Assembly: GCA_000806115.1 (NCBI GenBank)
Contig: JWKQ01000001.1
Coordinates: 368,915-432,914 of the forward strand
Origin: an archaeon GW2011_AR5
GTDB taxonomy: Archaea; Aenigmatarchaeota; Aenigmatarchaeia; GW2011-AR5
Length of the DNA: 64,000 nucleotides
Direction: 5' to 3'
The notes beneath the pieces were generated by a model that searched no databases, had not been told where the DNA came from, and saw nothing but the letters and a program-made list of their open reading frames with translations. Below are positions 9,398-62,486 of this stretch, one piece after another. A program made the translations under genes and the position numbers. How positions within the stretch are numbered: the stretch's first letter is position 1; each line of letters opens with the position of its first letter.

Positions 9398-10504
9398 ATG
9401 GTGGAATTCGACGGCTTCGGACCCGAGAAAATAATACAGGTTTATCATCCCAAATCAGGAATGAAAGGGGTTCTCGTTATCGACTCGACGGCGCTCGGGC
9501 CGGGCAAGGGTGGCATAAGAATGACACCGTCGGTGAGCGTCGAGGAAGTTGCAAAACTGGCAAGGGCGATGACGTGGAAGAACGCAATGGCGGAGTTGCC
9601 TTTCGGCGGGGCGAAAGCCGGCATAATGGCAGATACTAAGAAACTATCCGAGCAGCACAAGAAGGAAATTGTTGCTGCATTCTCCGACGCGCTGCGCCCG
9701 GTTTGTCCCGACATGTACGTGGCTGCGCCGGACATGTACTTCGCCGAGGAAGAAGTGAGGACATTCGTCGAGACGAACGGCTCCATGAAGGCAGCCACAG
9801 GAAAGCCGAAAGACATGGGTGGGCTGCCCCACGAACTGGGTTCTACAGGGTTTGGCGTTTTTCATTCAGTCCTTGTTGCGGCGGAACACATAGGACTGGA
9901 AATAAAAGGCGCAACGTTCGCGGTTGAAGGATTCGGAAACGTCGGCGAGTTTGTGGCAAAATTCCTCACAGAAAGAGGAGCGAAGCTTGTGGGCGTCTCA
10001 GACTCAAAAGGGTGCCTGTACAACGAGGACGGAATCGGCTACCAGAAACTTGACGAGATAAAGAAAACTACCGGCTCCGTAACAAATTACCCCGGGAAGG
10101 TGCTTCCAAACAAGGACATCATAAAGCTTGACGCTGACATACTCATCCCCGCAGCCGTGCCGAACCTTATAATTGCCGGCGATATTGACAGCGTAAAAGC
10201 AAAACTTATAGTGGAAGGCTCGAACATACCAATGGACGCCCAAACCGAAACATTGTTGCACAGGAAAGGCGTCACTGTGATACCGGATTTTGTCGCCAAT
10301 GCAGGCGGCGTAATAAGCAGCTATATCGAGTACATAGGCGGAACCGAGAAGGAAATGTTCAGAATGGTGGAAGAAAAAATATCAAAGAACACGAAAATGA
10401 TTCTCAAGAAAAGCGGCAAAAGCAAGACCCCAAGGGACGCCGCGATGGAAACGGCGATGGAACGCGTTCTCAAGGAATGCAAAATCTGCAAGATTGACAA
10501 GTGA
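9398..10504 (+). CDS. Glu/Leu/Phe/Val-family amino-acid dehydrogenase (glutamate dehydrogenase-like)
   Basis: KGGIRM and catalytic GGAKAGI motifs. Rossmann GFGNVG. Confidence 0.85.
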   Translation: MVEFDGFGPEKIIQVYHPKSGMKGVLVIDSTALGPGKGGIRMTPSVSVEEVAKLARAMTWKNAMAELPFGGAKAGIMADTKKLSEQHKKEIVAAFSDALRPVCPDMYVAAPDMYFAEEEVRTFVETNGSMKAATGKPKDMGGLPHELGSTGFGVFHSVLVAAEHIGLEIKGATFAVEGFGNVGEFVAKFLTERGAKLVGVSDSKGCLYNEDGIGYQKLDEIKKTTGSVTNYPGKVLPNKDIIKLDADILIPAAVPNLIIAGDIDSVKAKLIVEGSNIPMDAQTETLLHRKGVTVIPDFVANAGGVISSYIEYIGGTEKEMFRMVEEKISKNTKMILKKSGKSKTPRDAAMETAMERVLKECKICKIDK

Positions 10505-11011: not shown

Positions 11012-11222
11012 TTTCTCAATGACTCATGAAATGTTCCTAATATCTCTGGACTAAAGCCCAGAGTATCATGGGAACATGGCATCCAGAATGCATACAGAAA
11101 ACAAAGTTTTCTGTAGCATCAGTTAGCTTCGCTAACTGCTTGCATTGAGTTTTATCTGCAACCTAAAGGTTGCAGTATTCAATGCATTCTTAGATAAATT
11201 TACATGTTAAGTCATTGAAATC
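11012..11222 (+). repeat. family-1 multi-hairpin intergenic element, copy A
   Basis: Outer stem tcaatgact (11016) / agtcattga (11210). P1 atgttcc/ggaacat. P2 atccagaatgca...tgcattcttagat. Inner hairpins at 11044-11063 and 11156-11175 carry TAAA loops. Two extra hairpins are inserted at 11089-11140. No ORF. Confidence 0.8.
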
Positions 11223-19117: not shown

Positions 19118-22027
19118 TCAACCTTTCACGTTGCCGACAGGAACGAATTTGCAGACTTTGCTGGATATACCTGCCTTGTGCACGGCGTCTATCACTTCGT
19201 CTATGTCCTTGTAGGCGCTTCCCGCTTCCTCTGCGAGCCCCGCGAAGCTTGTTGTGCGCACGTATATTCCGCGCTTCTCCATGTCGCGCTGAAGGCTGTC
19301 TCCCCTGTAAAGCTGCCTCGCCCTCGTGCGCGACATCGTCCTTCCCGAGCCGTGAGCGGTGCTGCCGAAGGTTTCCTTCATACCCTTTTCCGTTCCCACC
19401 AGCAAATATGAGCCTGTCTCCATCGAGCCGCCTATGATTACCGGCTGCCCTATGTCACGATATATTTTTGGCACTTCCTCGCGCCCGGGACCGAATGCAC
19501 GCGTTGCGCCTTTCCTGTGAACCAGCACCTGCTGCCTTTTCCCGTTGACATCATGCTCCTCAAGCTTCGCCGTGTTGTGTGCCACGTCATAGACGCAGTT
19601 CATCTCCATCGACTCTGCCGACTGCCCCATCACCTTTGAGAAGCACTCCCGTATCCTGTGTAATATAACCTGGCGGTTGGCAAAACTCATGTTGATGCCG
19701 CATTTCATCGCCGTGAAGTAATCCTGGCCCTCTTTGCTCTGGAAAGGCGCGCATGCAAGCTCGCGGTCCAGTATCTTTATTCCGTACTTGGATTCCATAA
19801 CTTCGAGGAAGACGTTGAGATAATCCGTGGCAACCTGGTGCCCGAAGCCGCGGCTCCCGCAGTGGAACATAACCACTACCTGGTTGGGAAAGATTCCCAT
19901 CCGTTTTGCGATTTCCTTATCGACTATGTTCTCAGGCTTCACCACCTGTATCTCAAGATAGTGGTTGCCGCTGCCGAGCGTCCCAATCTGGTCCATGCCG
20001 CGCTCGATTGCCTTTGAGCTGACTTTTGATGCGTCACCTTCCATCTTACCGTTCTCTTCTATCCGCTCGAGGTCCTCTTCCCAGCCGTAACCTTGCTTCA
20101 CAGCCCATTCCGCGCCGCCCACGATAGCCTCGCGGAAGGTATTCTTGTTAAGCTTGACAAACCCCTTGCTGCCCACACCGGCGGGGACGCGCTCGAACAA
20201 CAAATCCACAAGCTGCTTCAGCTTCGGCTTGACGTCCTTGTAGGTAAGATTGGTTGTCAGAAGGCGCATTCCGCAGTTATGAGAAACTATGCAATTCGCT
20301 ATGAAATTATGATGGCGGCTAGGCATTGTGAAATCATAGACATATCCGTCATATTCGATATTTTTAATTTCCGAAACCTCATCTTTGATAAACTCGGAAT
20401 TTGGAATCTCAACCGTTCTACAAAATTCTTGGAATGTGGGGAAACTCCCTGAAATTCTCACGCCTTTATAGGTCTTATATTTTCTTGCTCTTACTCTGCT
20501 CTTCATGTCTGAAATTTCAATTTCATTGCACTCGATCATCTTCTCCAGATTTTTCAGATATTCACGCTTGAAATTCAGATAAGAAAGCGCAAGCATGGAA
20601 AGCCTTCTCCGTTCTGCGCAATATTCATAGCCAATGTTACCCCATAATCTACTCAAATTTTCAGGCTTTGCTGATAATCTGAGTGCAAGCTTGTGGGTTG
20701 GCTCTCCGAATGTATTAATTGCAATCCTTTGCCTGTATATTTTATTGGCAACAACCCCAAATTCCAGAAGGAGATTTGTTATTTCCAGAATGAAGTTCAT
20801 ATTATCCTTTTCAAGACTGTCTATCTTGTTCTGGCTAAAACTAGGCTCAGTGAAGCTCGTCAATTCGCTCTTCCTCTGACATGGCTTATTAAGCTCTGCA
20901 CCAAAGAGCCCGGCAAGATAAAGCCTTTTTATCCACTTTGGAGCTTTTCCAATCCATTTCGGAACAGATGTTTTTGTCCGAGATTTATTGCCTTTTGGAA
21001 CACCAAGAGCATGGAGCAAAACACTCAATGCCTGGGAATTAATATGGTATTGCGTGCTTTTTCCTATTATTTCCTGTTTAGAGCCGGATCCAGTTGTGAT
21101 CGTGCTTGAATAATCCAATGTCCTGATATGTGTTGCCTTGAATCCAAGCTCGAAAATGTCCTCTTTAATTTCTTCAAGATCTTCCTGTTTTCCTATAATT
21201 CTAGTAGACCAAATATCCATGCTTCTTTTTTTGGAAAAGTATGATCCTACCCATCCATCGCCTGTTATGAAACCAACAAGCTTTGCCAATATAGGTAATT
21301 TTGCAGAATTGTATCTCAATGGCAGGAGAGATTTTTCTTTAAGCTCTTTCACTATATTTTCCCTATTGCCTACAATGGATCGAATAGCATTTTCATCTAA
21401 GATTATATCACTAGACGGCTCCTCATATTCTATCCCATTAAATGGATGAATAATGATTTTTTGACCCTCTCTCATTTCGCTTGCTTCTATGAACTCGCTG
21501 CCCGTATACAGAGGATGATCAGAAGAAAGGATGATTTCATGACCGGTTTTTGTAGTTATTTTCAGGACTGGCTTGTCTGATTCCTTTGCCAAAAATATTA
21601 CAGGCTTGTCATGCAGTTTATTGCTATTTTCAGTATCAATATAGCTAACTGTATCTGTGCATTTCTCCATTTCTTTTATTTTTCTGAAATATCCAAAGCG
21701 TGTAAGTATTCTTGTCTCCGGATGCAAGCAGTTGATGTCGAATCCTATTCCGCCGGGAGAAATGACGCCTTTCTCGACGTCCATCGCCGCGACGCCGCCT
21801 ATCGGAAATCCGTACCCGGAGTGCCCGTCAGACATGCAATAAGCATAATTGATGATACCCGGCAGCGTGGCTACATTGGTTATCTGGTCATAAACCTGCA
21901 TGTCCATCTGGGCGACTATTCCCTCGGTGCCTATAATCTTCGCAGGCACGTGCATGCCCGGCTTGTAAGTCTTCGGGATAACCCATTCAGTTTCGCTGAC
22001 TTTCTGCAAAAAGTTTGGTACTGCCAA
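19118..22027 (-). CDS. rtcB: RNA-splicing ligase RtcB, interrupted by an intein
   Basis: Exteins carry the RtcB motifs (GGIGFDIN | CGMRLL, GSGNHY, HCGSRGFGH, HGSGR). 969 aa, against about 480 for an intein-free RtcB. Confidence 0.95.
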   Translation of the reverse strand: MAVPNFLQKVSETEWVIPKTYKPGMHVPAKIIGTEGIVAQMDMQVYDQITNVATLPGIINYAYCMSDGHSGYGFPIGGVAAMDVEKGVISPGGIGFDINCLHPETRILTRFGYFRKIKEMEKCTDTVSYIDTENSNKLHDKPVIFLAKESDKPVLKITTKTGHEIILSSDHPLYTGSEFIEASEMREGQKIIIHPFNGIEYEEPSSDIILDENAIRSIVGNRENIVKELKEKSLLPLRYNSAKLPILAKLVGFITGDGWVGSYFSKKRSMDIWSTRIIGKQEDLEEIKEDIFELGFKATHIRTLDYSSTITTGSGSKQEIIGKSTQYHINSQALSVLLHALGVPKGNKSRTKTSVPKWIGKAPKWIKRLYLAGLFGAELNKPCQRKSELTSFTEPSFSQNKIDSLEKDNMNFILEITNLLLEFGVVANKIYRQRIAINTFGEPTHKLALRLSAKPENLSRLWGNIGYEYCAERRRLSMLALSYLNFKREYLKNLEKMIECNEIEISDMKSRVRARKYKTYKGVRISGSFPTFQEFCRTVEIPNSEFIKDEVSEIKNIEYDGYVYDFTMPSRHHNFIANCIVSHNCGMRLLTTNLTYKDVKPKLKQLVDLLFERVPAGVGSKGFVKLNKNTFREAIVGGAEWAVKQGYGWEEDLERIEENGKMEGDASKVSSKAIERGMDQIGTLGSGNHYLEIQVVKPENIVDKEIAKRMGIFPNQVVVMFHCGSRGFGHQVATDYLNVFLEVMESKYGIKILDRELACAPFQSKEGQDYFTAMKCGINMSFANRQVILHRIRECFSKVMGQSAESMEMNCVYDVAHNTAKLEEHDVNGKRQQVLVHRKGATRAFGPGREEVPKIYRDIGQPVIIGGSMETGSYLLVGTEKGMKETFGSTAHGSGRTMSRTRARQLYRGDSLQRDMEKRGIYVRTTSFAGLAEEAGSAYKDIDEVIDAVHKAGISSKVCKFVPVGNVKG
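20276..21730 (-). mobile_element. intein (485 aa) with LAGLIDADG homing-endonuclease domain
   Basis: Starts with Cys100 (CLHPETRIL) right after FDIN. Ends ...IVSHN, followed by the +1 Cys of CGMRLL. LAGLIDADG-type motifs LVGFITGDGW and YLAGLFGAEL. Confidence 0.85.
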
Positions 22028-22197: not shown

Positions 22198-22788
22198 TTA
22201 AAGTCGTTCTTTGACAGCTATCCTTATGCGCTGCAAAGCAGTTATGTTCGCAAGAACTGCCAGCAGGACAAGCACATAAGTCAGGTAAGCCGCATTGAAA
22301 TAAGCGAGCAGTATGCCGATGAACACAATAATCATCCTTTCAGGCCTCTCCAGCAAGCCGCCGCTTATCTCCCTGTTCAACTTTTCCTTGGCTGCGGCCT
22401 TGACATAAGTCACTGTCATCGAGCCGAAAAGGTACAGGGCTGCCCAGAAATAAGACGGCAGGTAGAATGGAGGAAGCGGAACCAGCAGGATAACAAGCGC
22501 GATTATACCTTCCATGTACCTGTCTGAAACCGTGTCAAAGTACGCGCCGCGTGCGCTGGCTGATTTCCTGTAACGCGCAACAGCGCCGTCCACAGCGTCA
22601 AGGAAGGCACCGGCAGCAAAAAATACGGCGGCGCAGATGAAGTTCTGAACCAGAAGAAAGTAAGCAGCAATGAACGCAGCCAGCAAAGCGAGGACTGTGT
22701 AGGCGTTTGCGCTGCCGAAACGTCCAAATGCTTTGCCTACAGATGCCGAAAAACCGGAGAATTTCTTGCGTCTCTTGTAAAGTGTCAT
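22198..22788 (-). CDS. CDP-alcohol phosphatidyltransferase
   Basis: DGAVARx8GAYFDTVSDRY matches DGxxARx8Gx3Dx3D. Multi-TM. Confidence 0.8.
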   Translation of the reverse strand: MTLYKRRKKFSGFSASVGKAFGRFGSANAYTVLALLAAFIAAYFLLVQNFICAAVFFAAGAFLDAVDGAVARYRKSASARGAYFDTVSDRYMEGIIALVILLVPLPPFYLPSYFWAALYLFGSMTVTYVKAAAKEKLNREISGGLLERPERMIIVFIGILLAYFNAAYLTYVLVLLAVLANITALQRIRIAVKERL

Positions 22789-23488: not shown

Positions 23489-24361
23489 TTGGCTGTTCCA
23501 AGATATAATTCTTTAAATTCCTATAATTCAAGTAGTATAGTGAAAAGCAAAATTGACAGGCAGGTTAGAATGGAGGCTTTCGACGCGTTAGATAAGCTAA
23601 GAAAAGATAATCTACCAAGAAAGGAAATTATAGAAATAATAAACAAAAAGTTTGGCATACCTTCAGGAAACCTATATGATTGGTACAGTAACAAGCACAT
23701 TCCATATGGACGTAAAGGGAAGCTAAAAAATATCCCAGAGTTATTTTATGTAATTGGAGCACTTCTTGGTGATGGCTGTCTATACAGATGGAGGTTGACA
23801 AATAATTTTGTACTCTTAATGGGCGATAAAAGATTTGCAGAAAAATATGCAAGACTAGTTACGCTTTGCACAAATAAGAAATCAAAAGCCTACATAAACA
23901 GAAATCAGAACATATGGTTTGTCAAGTCCAACAATTTTGAATTGTATTCTTTCTTCAAGAAATCACGCGAAGATTTGAGTTATCTTACAAATTTATTAAA
24001 AAATAGTGACAGGAAATGCTCTATACTGTTTATCGAAGGGCTTTTTGATGCCGAAGGCTGTGTCAAAATTATTAAAGAAAAGGCGCGAAAAACTCCTAAG
24101 ATATGTTTAGATATAACAAACACAAATTTTGAACTTCTAGAAGTTTTTAAGAATTTGTTAAAAATCAGCTTTGAAATAGAAGCCAATTACTCAATCCAGA
24201 AGCCATTTGTTGGCAAAGACGGTTCAACAAGGAAAAAATCTTATCATCTTAGAATTTACAAAAAAGATGATATAAGAAAATTTCTAAAGAATATCAATAC
24301 AACAAAACTAAAAGAAGAAAAAATTCCTTACGTCAATAACTGGTTAAATAACGGCAAATAA
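23489..24361 (+). CDS. free-standing LAGLIDADG homing endonuclease (two-motif) with N-terminal HTH-like region
   Basis: VIGALLGDGCLY and FIEGLFDAEGCV motifs. The TTG start in the track is uncertain (alternative ATG near 23570). Stop abuts the sod stop with no spacer. Confidence 0.7.
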   Translation: MAVPRYNSLNSYNSSSIVKSKIDRQVRMEAFDALDKLRKDNLPRKEIIEIINKKFGIPSGNLYDWYSNKHIPYGRKGKLKNIPELFYVIGALLGDGCLYRWRLTNNFVLLMGDKRFAEKYARLVTLCTNKKSKAYINRNQNIWFVKSNNFELYSFFKKSREDLSYLTNLLKNSDRKCSILFIEGLFDAEGCVKIIKEKARKTPKICLDITNTNFELLEVFKNLLKISFEIEANYSIQKPFVGKDGSTRKKSYHLRIYKKDDIRKFLKNINTTKLKEEKIPYVNNWLNNGK

Positions 24362-26694: not shown

Positions 26695-26758
26695 AAGCGG
26701 TTTTCCGATTTTTTTAATTTAACAATTTACCTATTTTTTAAAAACAATCAGAAATCAG

Positions 26759-26976
26759 ATCTTCCTAATATCCCACGACTTTAGTTGTGGATTTGCAAGG
26801 ATGACTCAAAGAGTCATCCTGCACGGAAGGAACTTCGTTCCTTCCTGTGTTGGAAGATAGGATTCAGATTCATTGTGTTTCACAAGGACTTCGAAGAAAT
26901 CCTGTGCAGGAAAAGCAAAGCTTTTCCTCGCATCACGCGACTAAAGTCGCGTGTTTTCAATGAATCTAGAATAATC
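26759..26976 (+). repeat. family-1 multi-hairpin intergenic element, copy C
   Basis: P1 atcttcc (26759) / ggaagat (26852) encloses TAATA and three hairpins. P2 attcagattcattg (26862) / caatgaatctagaat (26958) encloses three hairpins, including 26934-26953 with a TAAA loop. Track ORF 26785..26982 lies wholly inside and is rejected. Confidence 0.8.
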
Positions 26977-28454: not shown

Positions 28455-28550
28455 TGCCGAGGAAGGAAAATGGCTGGCGAGCTTTGCTCGCATTCGGCTG
28501 CTTCCTAAGGCTTTACCATCCTTAGGTCGCTACGCCCCTTTTATAGCGAA

Positions 28551-28697
28551 CCAAGTTATGAAATGCTCCTAATAACCCGCACCTAAAGGTGCGGGTTTCA
28601 TGGGAGCATAGCATCCAGAATGCATTGAGTTTCATCTGCCGCATAAATGCGGCAGTTTTCAATGCATTCTCGGATAATATCCAGATTCTTTACTTGG
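28551..28697 (+). repeat. family-1 multi-hairpin intergenic element, copy B (minimal form)
   Basis: Outer stem ccaagt (28551) / acttgg (28692). P1 atgctcc (28563) / ggagcat (28603) around TAATA and hairpin 28575-28596. P2 atccagaatgcattga (28613) / tcaatgcattctcggat (28659) around hairpin 28636-28655. Confidence 0.8.
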
Positions 28698-28716
28698 TCA
28701 GCTATATTCAACTCTT

Positions 28717-35403: not shown

Positions 35404-35478
35404 TGTTTCATGTAAAACCCTCTATTTTAACATTTGCTTAGCTGTGTTATTGGGGATCACATTGTTATCTTGATATCA

Positions 35479-35621
35479 CATCTTCTTTGTTAGAAGATGG
35501 GACCCCGAATGCGCCTCTAATACATGATGAAGCTTCGCTTCACCTGTACAGAAAGAACTTCGTTCTTTCATGTGCATGCCGTCTAAAGACGGCAGTTTCA
35601 GGCACATTCAAGATAATTATC
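35479..35621 (+). repeat. family-1 multi-hairpin intergenic element, copy D
   Basis: P1 catcttc/gaagatg with loop tttgtta. P2 cgaatgcgcc (35506) / ggcacattc (35601) encloses TCTAATA and three hairpins (TTC, TTC and TAAA loops). Near-identical to copy E. Track ORF 35487..35681 lies inside and is rejected. Confidence 0.8.
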
Positions 35622-44946: not shown

Positions 44947-45216
44947 TTACCCGAACCTTCTCACCCATTTGATGATAGTCCATCTTGAAACTTTCACCCC
45001 GCGCGACTCGAGCTGGCGTTTTACTTTTGAAGACGAAGAGCCGGACTTGTAAAGCCTCACAGCGTGCATGACGTCGCTTCGGTGAAAGCGCATCTTCGGC
45101 CAGTCTGTCGTGAATTTGCGCCCGCATTTTGTGCAAAGGTAAAGCTGCTTTTTTCCAAGGTTCGTGCGTCGAAGTCCGCGCTTCACGCCTCGTCCCGTGC
45201 AATGGGGGCATTTCAT
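44947..45216 (-). CDS. transposase N-terminal fragment (zinc ribbon + HTH, IS6/IS1-like), no catalytic domain
   Basis: MKCPHCTG...YLCTKCGRKF zinc ribbon, then an HTH-like ...VRLYKSG.S..KV...L...GVKVSRWTIIKWVRRFG. Only 89 aa, so the DDE part is absent. Confidence 0.55.
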   Translation of the reverse strand: MKCPHCTGRGVKRGLRRTNLGKKQLYLCTKCGRKFTTDWPKMRFHRSDVMHAVRLYKSGSSSSKVKRQLESRGVKVSRWTIIKWVRRFG

Positions 45217-45279
45217 AGATATGTATTTGGAGCGGCACTATTAATTTTTATACGTGCGCATCATTGTAAAATTTCATCA

Positions 45280-45453
45280 CATCTTCTTTGTATACCCACG
45301 ACTTTAGTCGTGGGTTTGTTAGAAGATGGGATCCCGAATGCGCCTCTAATTAAACATGATGAAGCTTCGCTTCACCTGTACAGAAAGAACTTCGTTCTTT
45401 CATGTACATGCCGTCTAAAGACGGCAGTTTCAGGCACATTCAAGATGAGAATC
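45280..45453 (+). repeat. family-1 multi-hairpin intergenic element, copy E
   Basis: Same as copy D apart from two substitutions, a 3-nt indel and a 28-nt hairpin insertion (45292-45319) in the P1 loop. Confidence 0.8.
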
Positions 45454-45786
45454 AGCACGAAAGGCCTCAGGAAAGAGGAAGGCTACAGCTTCGAAGATGT
45501 CAGGCGCGCGCTGATAGACTGGCACATACCTTACGAGGTTACGCGCCGCCCGGCAAGAGCGGACACGTATTTCAGGAGCTCGGCAGTGATCCTTTGCGAA
45601 AGCGACCCTGAGAAAAGGCAGGGGCACATATCGAGGGTGATGGAAAGGTTCAATGCGCGTCAATCGGACGGCTATCTTTCATGCCATGCGTACTACAGAA
45701 TTACGCCAGAGTTTGACTTATCCGTGCTGAACGGGCATCCAAAATTCTTGAATGGCATGCTTGTCGAAATTACATTAATAGGATGA
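45445..45786 (+). CDS. hypothetical protein (113 aa)
   Basis: ATG at 45445 lies in the tail of repeat E. In frame with track ORF 45064..45786, whose upstream part runs through the repeat and antisense to the transposase fragment. Confidence 0.35.
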   Translation: MRISTKGLRKEEGYSFEDVRRALIDWHIPYEVTRRPARADTYFRSSAVILCESDPEKRQGHISRVMERFNARQSDGYLSCHAYYRITPEFDLSVLNGHPKFLNGMLVEITLIG

Positions 45787-50461: not shown

Positions 50462-50588
50462 AAGTTCACCGGGCCGTGTTGTAAAGAACACGTGTAGTGT
50501 TCTTACACAGGGCATGCCGGATAACTCAAAGGTATGCCCTTGTGTCAACACGGTCCACAATATCAACAACTTTTCAGGAGACAAAGCG

Positions 50589-60788: not shown

Positions 60789-60885
60789 GGGGTCATAGTA
60801 TAAAGAGCTCCAGTAAAGCTCGTAAAACCTGGTAGAACGTCAGTCTCCAAAACTGATTATGGGGGTTCGAATCCCTCTGACCCCA
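60789..60885 (+). tRNA. tRNA-Trp (anticodon CCA) with a 23-nt insertion in the D-arm
   Basis: Acceptor ggggtca/tgacccc + A. Anticodon arm tcagt-ctCCAaa-actga (CCA at 60847-60849). T-arm ggggg-ttcgaat-ccctc. 97 nt in total. Removing 60805-60827 leaves a 74-nt cloverleaf. Confidence 0.7.
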
Positions 60886-60893
60886 TCAGGATT
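60870..60893 (+). repeat. direct repeat copy 1 (tRNA-Trp 3' end + trailer)
   Basis: AATCCCTCTGACCCCATcaGGATT. 17/17 identical, then 22/24 overall, to 61016-61039. Confidence 0.85.
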
Positions 60894-61015: not shown

Positions 61016-61039
61016 AATCCCTCTGACCCCATTGGGATT
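61016..61039 (+). repeat. direct repeat copy 2 (duplicate of tRNA-Trp 3' end)
   Basis: AATCCCTCTGACCCCATtgGGATT. Confidence 0.85.
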
Positions 61040-62082: not shown

Positions 62083-62209
62083 GCTCTTCAGTCCCGCTTA
62101 GGCGGGCGGAAGCGGTTTACGGAATGCTGATGTCAGACCGATAATTTAGTCCTATTTCTTTTTTCTTTCTCTATCATTTTCACTTCTCTGTTGTTTTGTA
62201 GGTTAATTA

Positions 62210-62300
62210 CATCTTCTTGTGTAAGAAGATGGAATCCAGAACTCATCCCTTCATCCCATGGCTAAAGCCATGGGTTTTCAGATGAATTCTTAGATAATTC
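62210..62300 (+). repeat. family-1 multi-hairpin intergenic element, copy F (short form)
   Basis: P1 catcttct/agaagatg. P2 atccagaactcatc (62234) / gatgaattcttagat (62281) around hairpin 62255-62274 (TAAA loop). Tail ATAATT. Confidence 0.75.
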
Positions 62301-62486
62301 CAAAATTTTGGGAAATTATAGTATCGGACAATCCTATTTGGGAATATTATTGGTTGTCCGTACTACAAGGTTGAGCGCAGCTCAACCTGTACAGGTGAGA
62401 CGAAGTTTCACCTTGTATATGTGAAGACATAATCATAATATCACTCTAAATTGTTATGTCTTGCACTATATTCCAATTCCGGAATT

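Follow-up and report, generated by a model that had tools for sequence, protein, structure and literature searches.

A 52-nucleotide double hairpin added inside a helix of a multi-copy intergenic repeat in an Aenigmatarchaeota genome

The DNA analysed here, referred to as the window, is a stretch of 64,000 nucleotides (nt) from contig JWKQ01000001.1 of the archaeon GW2011_AR5 (Aenigmatarchaeota). It is an otherwise ordinary archaeal segment that encodes SufBCD, glutamate dehydrogenase, RtcB with an intein, Rad50/Mre11/HerA, PCNA and CTP synthase. The window also contains six copies, about one per 10 kb, of a non-coding intergenic repeat that we designate family-1, which is approximately 120 nt long, rich in hairpins and present in multiple copies in Aenigmatarchaeota-like DPANN archaea. 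One of these copies, copy A, has 52 additional nucleotides that form two hairpins in the middle of a helix that is uninterrupted in a second copy, copy B. Here we describe this insert, its counterparts at other positions of the repeat and the routes by which it could have arisen.

We gathered about 30 family-1 copies, which share a common architecture. Helix P1 is a 7-base pair (bp) helix (ATGYTCC/GGARCAT) enclosing TAATA and a hairpin with a variable stem and a TAAA loop, helix P2 is a long helix (ATCCAGAATGCATTGA / TCAATGCATTCT.GGAT) around a second variable hairpin with a TAAA loop, and the 3′ terminus is GATAA. Copies were scored with a covariance model, R1, built from a 10-copy family-1 alignment. 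The copies in the window are as follows:

11026–11197, plus strand: copy A, with P2 filled by the insert; R1 76 bits, identified also by its fold and by an orthologous site in the related locus L015 that has no copy.
26754–26974, plus strand: a type-2 copy with two extra cassettes, in the P1 interior (26794–26849) and the P2 loop (26881–26932); R1 39 bits.
28558–28677, plus strand: copy B, with an empty P2 site; R1 141 bits, identified also by its fold.
35475–35616, plus strand: a type-3 copy with a 52-nt cassette in the P2 interior (35521–35574 including TA); R1 20 bits.
45276–45448, plus strand: a type-3 copy with a cassette at 45353–45406 and a 28-nt P1 hairpin flanked by TTTGT; R1 51 bits.
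62206–62297, plus strand: a minimal copy, with a simple hairpin as P1 and no extra cassettes; R1 66 bits.

In copy A, P1 (ATGTTCC/GGAACAT) surrounds a TAAA-loop hairpin, P2 (ATCCAGAATGCATTGA/TCAATGCATTCT.GAT) surrounds the hairpin CTGCAACC-TAAA-GGTTGCAG, and the element ends in GATAA. The two type-3 copies at 35475 and 45276 are 96% identical across 102 nt, and P1 of the former lacks the TAAA/TTTA hairpin. The P1-interior cassette of the type-2 copy has TGCA-type termini.

Copies A and B are collinear except for a single 52-nt gap in copy B, as seen both by direct reading and in a MAFFT alignment. The initial annotation had described copy A as copy B plus 52 nt bounded by a TGCA direct repeat, and had stated that deleting positions 11089–11140 restores the copy-B P2 helix; these claims hold, and once the 52 nt are taken out of copy A the sequence ATCCAGAATGCATTGAG is recovered exactly as in copy B. 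The parts of the insert are as follows:

11089–11140, or in the equivalent register 11093–11144, plus strand: the insert, 52 nt that copy B and about 25 other copies lack, from reading and alignment.
11089–11092, no strand assigned: the left TGCA, itself palindromic and lying at the midpoint of the P2 palindrome AATGCATT.
11093–11115, no strand assigned: hairpin X, TACAGAAAAC-AAA-GTTTTCTGTA, with 10 perfect base pairs.
11120–11138, no strand assigned: hairpin Y, CAGTTAGC-TTC-GCTAACTG, with 8 perfect base pairs and CAG/CTG termini.
11141–11144, no strand assigned: the right TGCA, read directly.

Because TGCA is repeated, the register of the insert can be placed anywhere from 11089–11140 to 11093–11144. 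The two hairpins annotated as perfect are indeed so, apart from the leading T of hairpin Y (11119), which is unpaired, a trivial departure. The termini of hairpin X (TACAG/CTGTA) resemble those of the canonical cassette units described below, and next to hairpin Y the trinucleotide GCA (11116–11118) is able to pair with TGC (11141–11143). In the predicted fold, the left TGCA pairs as an extension of the hairpin X stem, with one A bulged. The insert splits the 8-nt palindrome AATGCATT symmetrically at its centre (AA/TGCA/TT), leaving TGCA on each side, which is the outcome expected of a symmetric 4-nt staggered cut. By our calculation, a random insertion or deletion would show a junction ambiguity of at least 4 nt with a probability of about 1.6%. 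Perfect hairpins (stem of at least 7 bp, loop of 3–6 nt) number 59 in the window and 13–27 in mononucleotide-shuffled sequences.

The filled state is derived, and the 52 nt were added inside the helix of another element. Searches with a degenerate family-1 pattern that admitted both filled and empty P2 returned 8 copies in GTDB genomes (6 in a Candidatus Aenigmatarchaeota metagenome-assembled genome from Rifle groundwater and 2 in an uncultured archaeon) and about 22 real copies in JGI metagenomes; the loci returned did not include the contig of the window itself, and loci outside the window are numbered here with the prefix L. All 8 genomic copies have an empty P2, as do 21 metagenomic copies versus 1 filled copy, in L039. 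Two metagenome matches, L031 and L037, proved fortuitous: they lie in other sequence and are not matched by the covariance model. The family-1 and cassette patterns had no match in viral contigs. Thus, the insert is present in 2 of about 27 distinct type-1 copies (copy A and L039), and the other approximately 25 read GAATGCATTGAG without interruption.

The second filled copy bears on where the insertion took place. L039 is a 2.2-kb metagenome contig that carries the same insert at the same position, identical at 52 of 52 nucleotides, although the host cores of the two copies match at 100 of 124 positions (~81%) and both variable hairpins and the flanks differ. The presence of an identical insert at the same position of this diverged copy indicates that the insertion probably did not take place at the copy A locus. 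The P1 hairpin of L039 also holds, in its loop, another double hairpin of 52 nt, and L027 has this same P1-loop cassette but no insert in P2. The P1-loop cassette and the P2 insert therefore occur in each of their four combinations: neither in copy B, the P2 insert alone in copy A, the P1-loop cassette alone in L027, and both in L039. The copies also share parts in different pairings, with the P1 hairpin stem common to copy A and L027, the distal hairpin to L027 and L039, and the P2 insert to L039 and copy A. This mosaic requires either recombination between copies or repeated gain and loss. A copying of hairpin X from the host's own GTTTTATCTGCA was considered and rejected, as the similarity is weak and L039 has the same insert beside a different hairpin.

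Similar double-hairpin cassettes recur, nested at no fewer than four other positions of family-1 copies and also in or beside a second repeat, family-2. The initial annotation had proposed tabulating family copies that carry extra hairpins, and pairwise alignments of closely related family-1 copies indeed provide such hairpin pairs at other sites, with empty counterparts and short flanking repeats:

P1 hairpin loop, CTA^AAG: filled in L027 and L039, empty in copy A and others; 52 nt, junction TA.
Type-3 P2 interior: filled in the 35475 and 45276 copies, empty in L030 (485–602); 52 nt (55 nt in the 45276 copy), junction CATG.
P1 interior: filled in the 26754 copy, L011 and L041, empty in L033 (14066–14183); 54 nt, junction TG.
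Type-2 P2 loop: filled in the 26754 copy and L011, empty in L033 (14066–14183); 45 and 51 nt, junction CA.

Including copy A, the junction is ambiguous by at least 2 nt at five of five sites, for which we calculate a chance probability of about 0.156^5, or 1e-4, and three independent sites, copy A among them, have a net insert of 52 nt. In a sixth pair, the 28-nt P1 hairpin of the 45276 copy, with its TTTGT flanks, is missing from the 35475 copy; this difference is more likely a deletion, because L043 and L012 retain the hairpin with the same flanks.

The canonical cassette consists of two 28-nt hairpin units, TACA(A)GG-N6-loop-N6-CC(T)TGTA, which share a TA where they meet. Its length is 54 nt when the TA at each end is counted, and the net addition to the host is 52 nt. 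Its consensus, TACAAGG..CCTGTACAGG..CCTTGTA, is its own reverse complement and hence dyad-symmetric. The common build comprises two perfect hairpins of 8–12 bp with 3–5-nt loops, CA..TG unit ends and T-R-Y-A junction tetranucleotides in a total of 45–54 nt, and certain units carry TGCA instead of TACA/TGTA. A covariance model, R2, built from 11 canonical cassettes, matches cassettes on both strands at 18 places, of which 5 are in the window and 13 in related loci totalling about 148 kb; canonical cassettes score 40–79 bits. When single TACA..TGTA hairpins were sought without gaps, the unit shared by copy A and L039 was the only match, the canonical units being missed because they carry a bulge; a fold-based scan recovered these. 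The copy A insert fits the canonical size and build, with 52 nt net, CAG..CTG unit ends and short palindromic junction repeats, and may be a divergent relative of the canonical cassette, short of a proven member. A weak R2 match (21 bits) at 50480–50544 is a hairpin pair between two same-strand genes, either a degenerate cassette or a terminator-like structure.

The host repeats are themselves gained and lost, unlike a fixed RNA gene. Copy A lies beside a gene for a GARS-like protein, whose homologue in syntenic contigs (L015) is 85% identical. The orthologous spacer of this relative reads AATGACTC-ATAA-ATTTACATGTTA, and that of the window reads AATGACTC-(ATGAAATG...172 nt...GATAA)-ATTTACATGTTA; the whole of copy A is missing at the relative's orthologous site, so that the host element itself was gained or lost. 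A family-2 element of about 146 nt occupies positions 9772–9917 of L015, orthologous to window position ~11209 and 13 nt beyond the copy A site, where the window is empty, and a more distant relative (73% identical) has neither copy A nor the family-2 element. The terminal hairpins of this family-2 element open with TATAG and close with CTATA, its flanks are TA, a canonical double-hairpin cassette occupies its centre, and its loops contain the family-1 P2 motif (GAATCTGGATA / TATCCAGAAT). A family-2-like copy is also found in the window at ~62326–62440. The family-2-related features of the window, the arms being recognized by comparison with the L015 element, are as follows:

28542–28557, plus strand: family-2-type hairpin arm (TATAGCGAACCAAGTT), directly 5′ of copy B.
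28678–28706, plus strand: family-2-type loop motif and arm (TATCCAGATTCTTTACTTGGTCAGCTATA), directly 3′ of copy B.
62364–62417, no strand assigned: canonical cassette (TACAAGG..CCTGTACAGG..CCTTGTA) within the family-2-like element, just past the 62206 copy; R2 71 and 65 bits on the two strands.

The matching family-2-type arms on both sides of copy B indicate that copy B is nested in that hairpin. Family-1 copies occur in both orientations relative to neighbouring genes and sometimes in tandem. A strain represented by L048, 99.5% identical to the window across RtcB, loses synteny with it at position 22203 in the comparison with L048 1–1334, and the non-matching side of L048 contains an antisense family-1 copy and a canonical cassette, placing the repeats at a rearrangement breakpoint. 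The repeats also reach into genes. At L008 5540–5600 (also in L046), the glutamate dehydrogenase gene runs at its 3′ end directly into a family-1 copy, which replaces its last codon and stop codon, so that the frame ends within the repeat (…CKIDYEMFPI-stop, versus …CKIDK-stop in the window). The 3′ end of the 45276 copy (45440–45448) reads GATGA, not GATAA, and the ATG at 45445 is the first in-frame ATG of the open reading frame (ORF) 45064–45786; it may be the real start of this ORF, in which case the repeat would be its immediate 5′ leader. The 113-residue product from this ATG has no Pfam match.

From these observations, we favour DNA-level insertion of a palindromic double-hairpin cassette, nested within the 5′ arm of the family-1 helix P2, and consider it probable. 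Whatever moved or copied the cassette would be a DNA enzyme acting in trans, or else a pathway of repair or replication, working at pyrimidine–purine steps in palindromic, hairpin-forming DNA and creating or using 2–4 nt of junction homology. Recombination or gene conversion between copies would then redistribute the filled and empty states, and the insert could also spread as a filled element is copied. Copy A most likely reached its present locus already filled, or took its insert from another copy, and was probably not hit in place. P2 could re-form around the insert as a four-way junction: in predictions, a fold of this kind retaining P2 lies 0.2 kcal/mol above the minimum free energy of copy A, and the P2a pair probabilities go from ~1.0 in copy B to 0.5–0.7 in copy A.

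Several observations weigh against this view. All of the cassettes matched by R2 lie in or directly beside family-1 or family-2 elements, with none alone in unique DNA, a distribution compatible with recombination between repeats and with transposition alike. The copy A insert (11093–11144) aligns end to end with R2 at low scores, 15.8 and 14.8 bits (E ~0.07–0.12 across the window), and this marginal match means that its homology to the canonical cassette is not secure. The initial annotation had read the TGCA repeats as a target duplication accompanying insertion into the helix of another element; the added, derived segment within the helix stands, and the target duplication is unproven. It is weakened because TGCA is a palindrome, and thus a direct and an inverted repeat at once, because TGCA takes part in pairing that lengthens the stems of the inserted hairpins, and because it resembles the cassettes' own T-R-Y-A termini (TACA/TGTA/TGCA). 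In addition, the junction repeats vary in length and sequence (TGCA, TA, CATG, TG and CA), unlike the products expected of a single transposase that cuts with a constant stagger. Pfam scans of about 28 window ORFs, and the precomputed Pfam labels of the genes called across ~9–32 kb of the window, gave no transposase, Y1/RAYT or TnpB domain, the rest of the genome not having been searched, and we know of no autonomous partner element. Finally, strain-level empty and filled sites, which the initial annotation had suggested seeking, did not appear: all six metagenome contigs of the window's strain, recognized by an identical neighbouring protein, are filled and none is empty, so that no polymorphism is seen at the copy A locus itself.

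A serious rival, to which we give a real though lesser chance, is a template switch guided by microhomology, or gene conversion, from a paralogous two-hairpin repeat, with TGCA as the switch point. The mosaic of copy A, L027 and L039 with its four insert combinations, the identical insert in cores that have diverged by 19%, the short, length-variable junction homologies at pyrimidine–purine steps, the embedding of every cassette in other repeats and the lack of a transposase among the window ORFs scanned would all follow from such copying. However, the cassettes are uniform in size, with 52 nt at three independent sites, and have conserved ends, which together point to a defined unit and not to the copying of arbitrary tracts, and no donor with the X–Y order in another context was found.

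Another explanation, which we regard as unlikely, is that family-1 is a functional structured non-coding RNA (ncRNA) and that the 52 nt are a tolerated or selected expansion segment at a four-way junction, TGCA being plain helix sequence. The covariation is strong, with compensatory changes at 17 of 37 base pairs in the 10-copy family-1 alignment, the fold z-scores of family-1 elements, copies A and B included, are −8 to −10, P2 can still form with the insert present, and a few G·U pairs are on the plus strand. Loop orientation is also strongly biased (27 TAAA versus 4 TTTA), which counts against a purely DNA-level account, as it may reflect a strand-specific role as RNA or single-stranded DNA. 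However, no Rfam 15 family was found at copies A or B at gathering thresholds, and a permissive E-value gave only chance-level sRNA matches (27.9 bits, with a gathering threshold of 39.8). The two strands fold equally well, with no strand bias in fold energy across 30 copies (18 versus 12; p = 0.35), and the stems are almost purely Watson–Crick. Moreover, 4 of 29 stems occur as identical stems with inverted loops (TAAA/TTTA, TTC/GAA), as in window 28574–28597 versus L007 and in L009 versus L011, and reverse-complement loops on identical stems indicate that the loop was inverted at the DNA level. The inconsistent orientation to neighbouring genes, the tandem copies, the presence or absence at orthologous loci and the copy at a rearrangement breakpoint likewise speak against an RNA gene. 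Collectively, the dyad-symmetric cassette consensus, the flipped loops, the Watson–Crick stems and the equal folding of the strands suggest DNA-level palindromes, and in such palindromic sequences compensatory changes do not need RNA-level selection.

A bolder form of the nesting idea, which we offer as a long shot, is that the cassettes spread without a conventional transposase, targeting palindromic or cruciform DNA at pyrimidine–purine steps and nesting successively, so that complex multi-hairpin elements would be built up from a minimal hairpin. Possible routes of this kind are copying that is primed by hairpins or proceeds by template switching, and capture at the staggered cuts of a nuclease specific for palindromes. 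Among the window genes examined, the one nuclease-like feature out of the ordinary is a free-standing LAGLIDADG_3 homing-endonuclease-like gene (23540–24361, 273 residues), with the superoxide dismutase gene on one side and small ORFs on the other. LAGLIDADG-class enzymes cut pseudo-palindromic sites and leave 4-nt overhangs; any link of this gene to the TGCA and CATG junctions is pure speculation.

The converse possibility, that copy B and the other empty copies descend from a filled ancestor by slippage between the TGCA repeats, with deletion of the hairpin pair, is very improbable and we reject it. Palindromes between short direct repeats are prone to deletion, and the 35475/45276 TTTGT pair does resemble such an event. 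However, about 25 diverged copies from several genomes, including subtypes that differ in every hairpin, are all empty with identical GAATGCATTGAG, and the present data already suggest that the filled copies are a recent sub-clade, there being only two with identical inserts, as expected of a young insert. Least credible of all, and likewise rejected, is an archaeal bulge–helix–bulge intron in an ncRNA, cut by the splicing endonuclease to leave a junction reading GAA/UGCAUUGAG: the host is archaeal, a nearby tRNA-like gene is irregular and possibly intron-bearing, and the two UGCA copies could make a 4-bp helix, but junctions paired by hand give this UGCA/UGCA helix only, with no 3-nt bulges and no flanking helices, the predicted folds are plain hairpins, and the cassettes at other sites have different junctions.

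Nesting of a DNA-level cassette invites comparison with several classes of small repeats. Double-hairpin or repetitive hairpin-forming elements and GC clusters are described from mitochondria of fungi, sponges and algae (PMC2800124; Paquin, Laforest & Lang 2000 as cited in PMC4478555), and the mitochondrial double hairpins have been attributed to tandem insertion (PMC2800124). Like the cassettes, these elements are very short, consist of one or two adjacent hairpins, are non-coding and scattered between genes, at times lie inside structured RNA genes and differ in presence between close relatives. They are, however, organellar, eukaryotic and of other sequence, whereas the cassettes occur on a DPANN chromosome, have a dyad-symmetric consensus and are preferentially nested in other repeats.

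REP, BIME and REPIN elements are bacterial and are mobilized by RAYT transposases, which are of the IS200/IS605-type Y1 class. Similarly, the archaeal repeats are short, extragenic, multi-copy palindromes in mosaic clusters, without a terminal inverted repeat (TIR)-type transposase of their own, and REP-type elements are thought to act as single-stranded hairpins. The differences are that the archaeal units have no GTAG-type 5′ tetranucleotide, ending instead in TACA, TGTA or TGCA, and insert in one another's stems and loops; no Y1_Tnp/RAYT match was found in the window ORFs scanned, a genome-wide search not having been made. Non-autonomous elements derived from IS200/IS605 (PATE-like) have subterminal hairpins without a TIR or target duplication, lie 3′ of a fixed tetra- or pentanucleotide and share their ends with a tnpA/tnpB element. 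In family-1, no TIR was found and hairpins are near both ends, and neither tnpA nor tnpB is among the window ORFs scanned. The left flanks of 30 family-1 copies share only AT, possibly the element's own, and an empty site reads ACTC-ATAA-ATTTAC.

MITEs (miniature inverted-repeat transposable elements) of the IS630/Tc1-mariner type have a TA target duplication and ends that begin with CAG, and are typically ~50–500 bp long. The canonical units resemble them in reading TA/CAGG...CCTG/TA, and TA also lies on either side of the P1-loop insertion. The canonical cassettes end in inverted sequences of 7 nt (TACAAGG/CCTTGTA), and no transposase domain was found among the window ORFs scanned. Unlike these MITEs, however, the unit is only ~24 nt, each half is a palindrome of its own so that the left and right ends do not pair, and the copy A empty site GAATGCATTGAG has no TA, the insert flanks being TGCA, with TA flanks only at the P1-loop cassette. 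BOX elements are pneumococcal and have a modular boxA–boxB(n)–boxC structure; they share with the archaeal repeats an intergenic location, a high degree of structure and a module number that varies between copies. They are, however, bacterial, unrelated in sequence and variable in the number of tandem modules, whereas the cassettes are nested in stems and loops at several positions. None of these systems fits as a family. The repeats belong with small palindromic non-autonomous repeats, among which their regular nesting of ~52-nt units into stems and loops is unusual. Full-text literature searches returned no account of repeats like these from Aenigmatarchaeota or from other DPANN archaea.

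Other mobile or irregular features occur in the window and its relatives. A tRNA-Trp(CCA)-like gene at 60789–61032 matches the Rfam tRNA model at 31.5 bits over model positions 10–63 only, with an irregular D-arm region and ~17 extra nt, and ARAGORN reported nothing there. Its 3′ end, ATCCCTCTGACCCCAT, is present twice (60871–60886 and 61017–61032), flanking a block of about 130 nt with four perfect hairpins, one of which, CAGTTGAAC-TAC-GTTCAACTG, resembles hairpin Y; the duplication could be an att-like duplication or reflect another nested hairpin block. The RtcB gene of the window (19118–22027) carries its intein, and the SufB homologue in L015 (1393–2538) has a LAGLIDADG-domain intein within an 857-residue product, whereas the SufB of the window (4348/4349) has 475 residues and no intein. 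The SufB intein, present in the relative and missing in the window, indicates that close relatives vary in their inteins.

The genomes of DPANN archaea are very small, yet 64 kb of one of them contains six copies of a structured repeat that differ by whole nested hairpin cassettes. The repeats sit at a strain-level synteny break and can take the place of a stop codon or extend over a start codon, and they can mislead screens for structured RNAs, as textbook covariation may here not reflect RNA function. If the cassettes are mobile, they would be, to our knowledge, among the smallest insertion units in a cellular chromosome, and would provide a tractable case of palindromic DNA spread and of the piecewise assembly of hairpin architectures. 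If nesting without a transposase proves true, it would represent a natural mechanism by which structured RNA and DNA elements accrete in reduced DPANN genomes.

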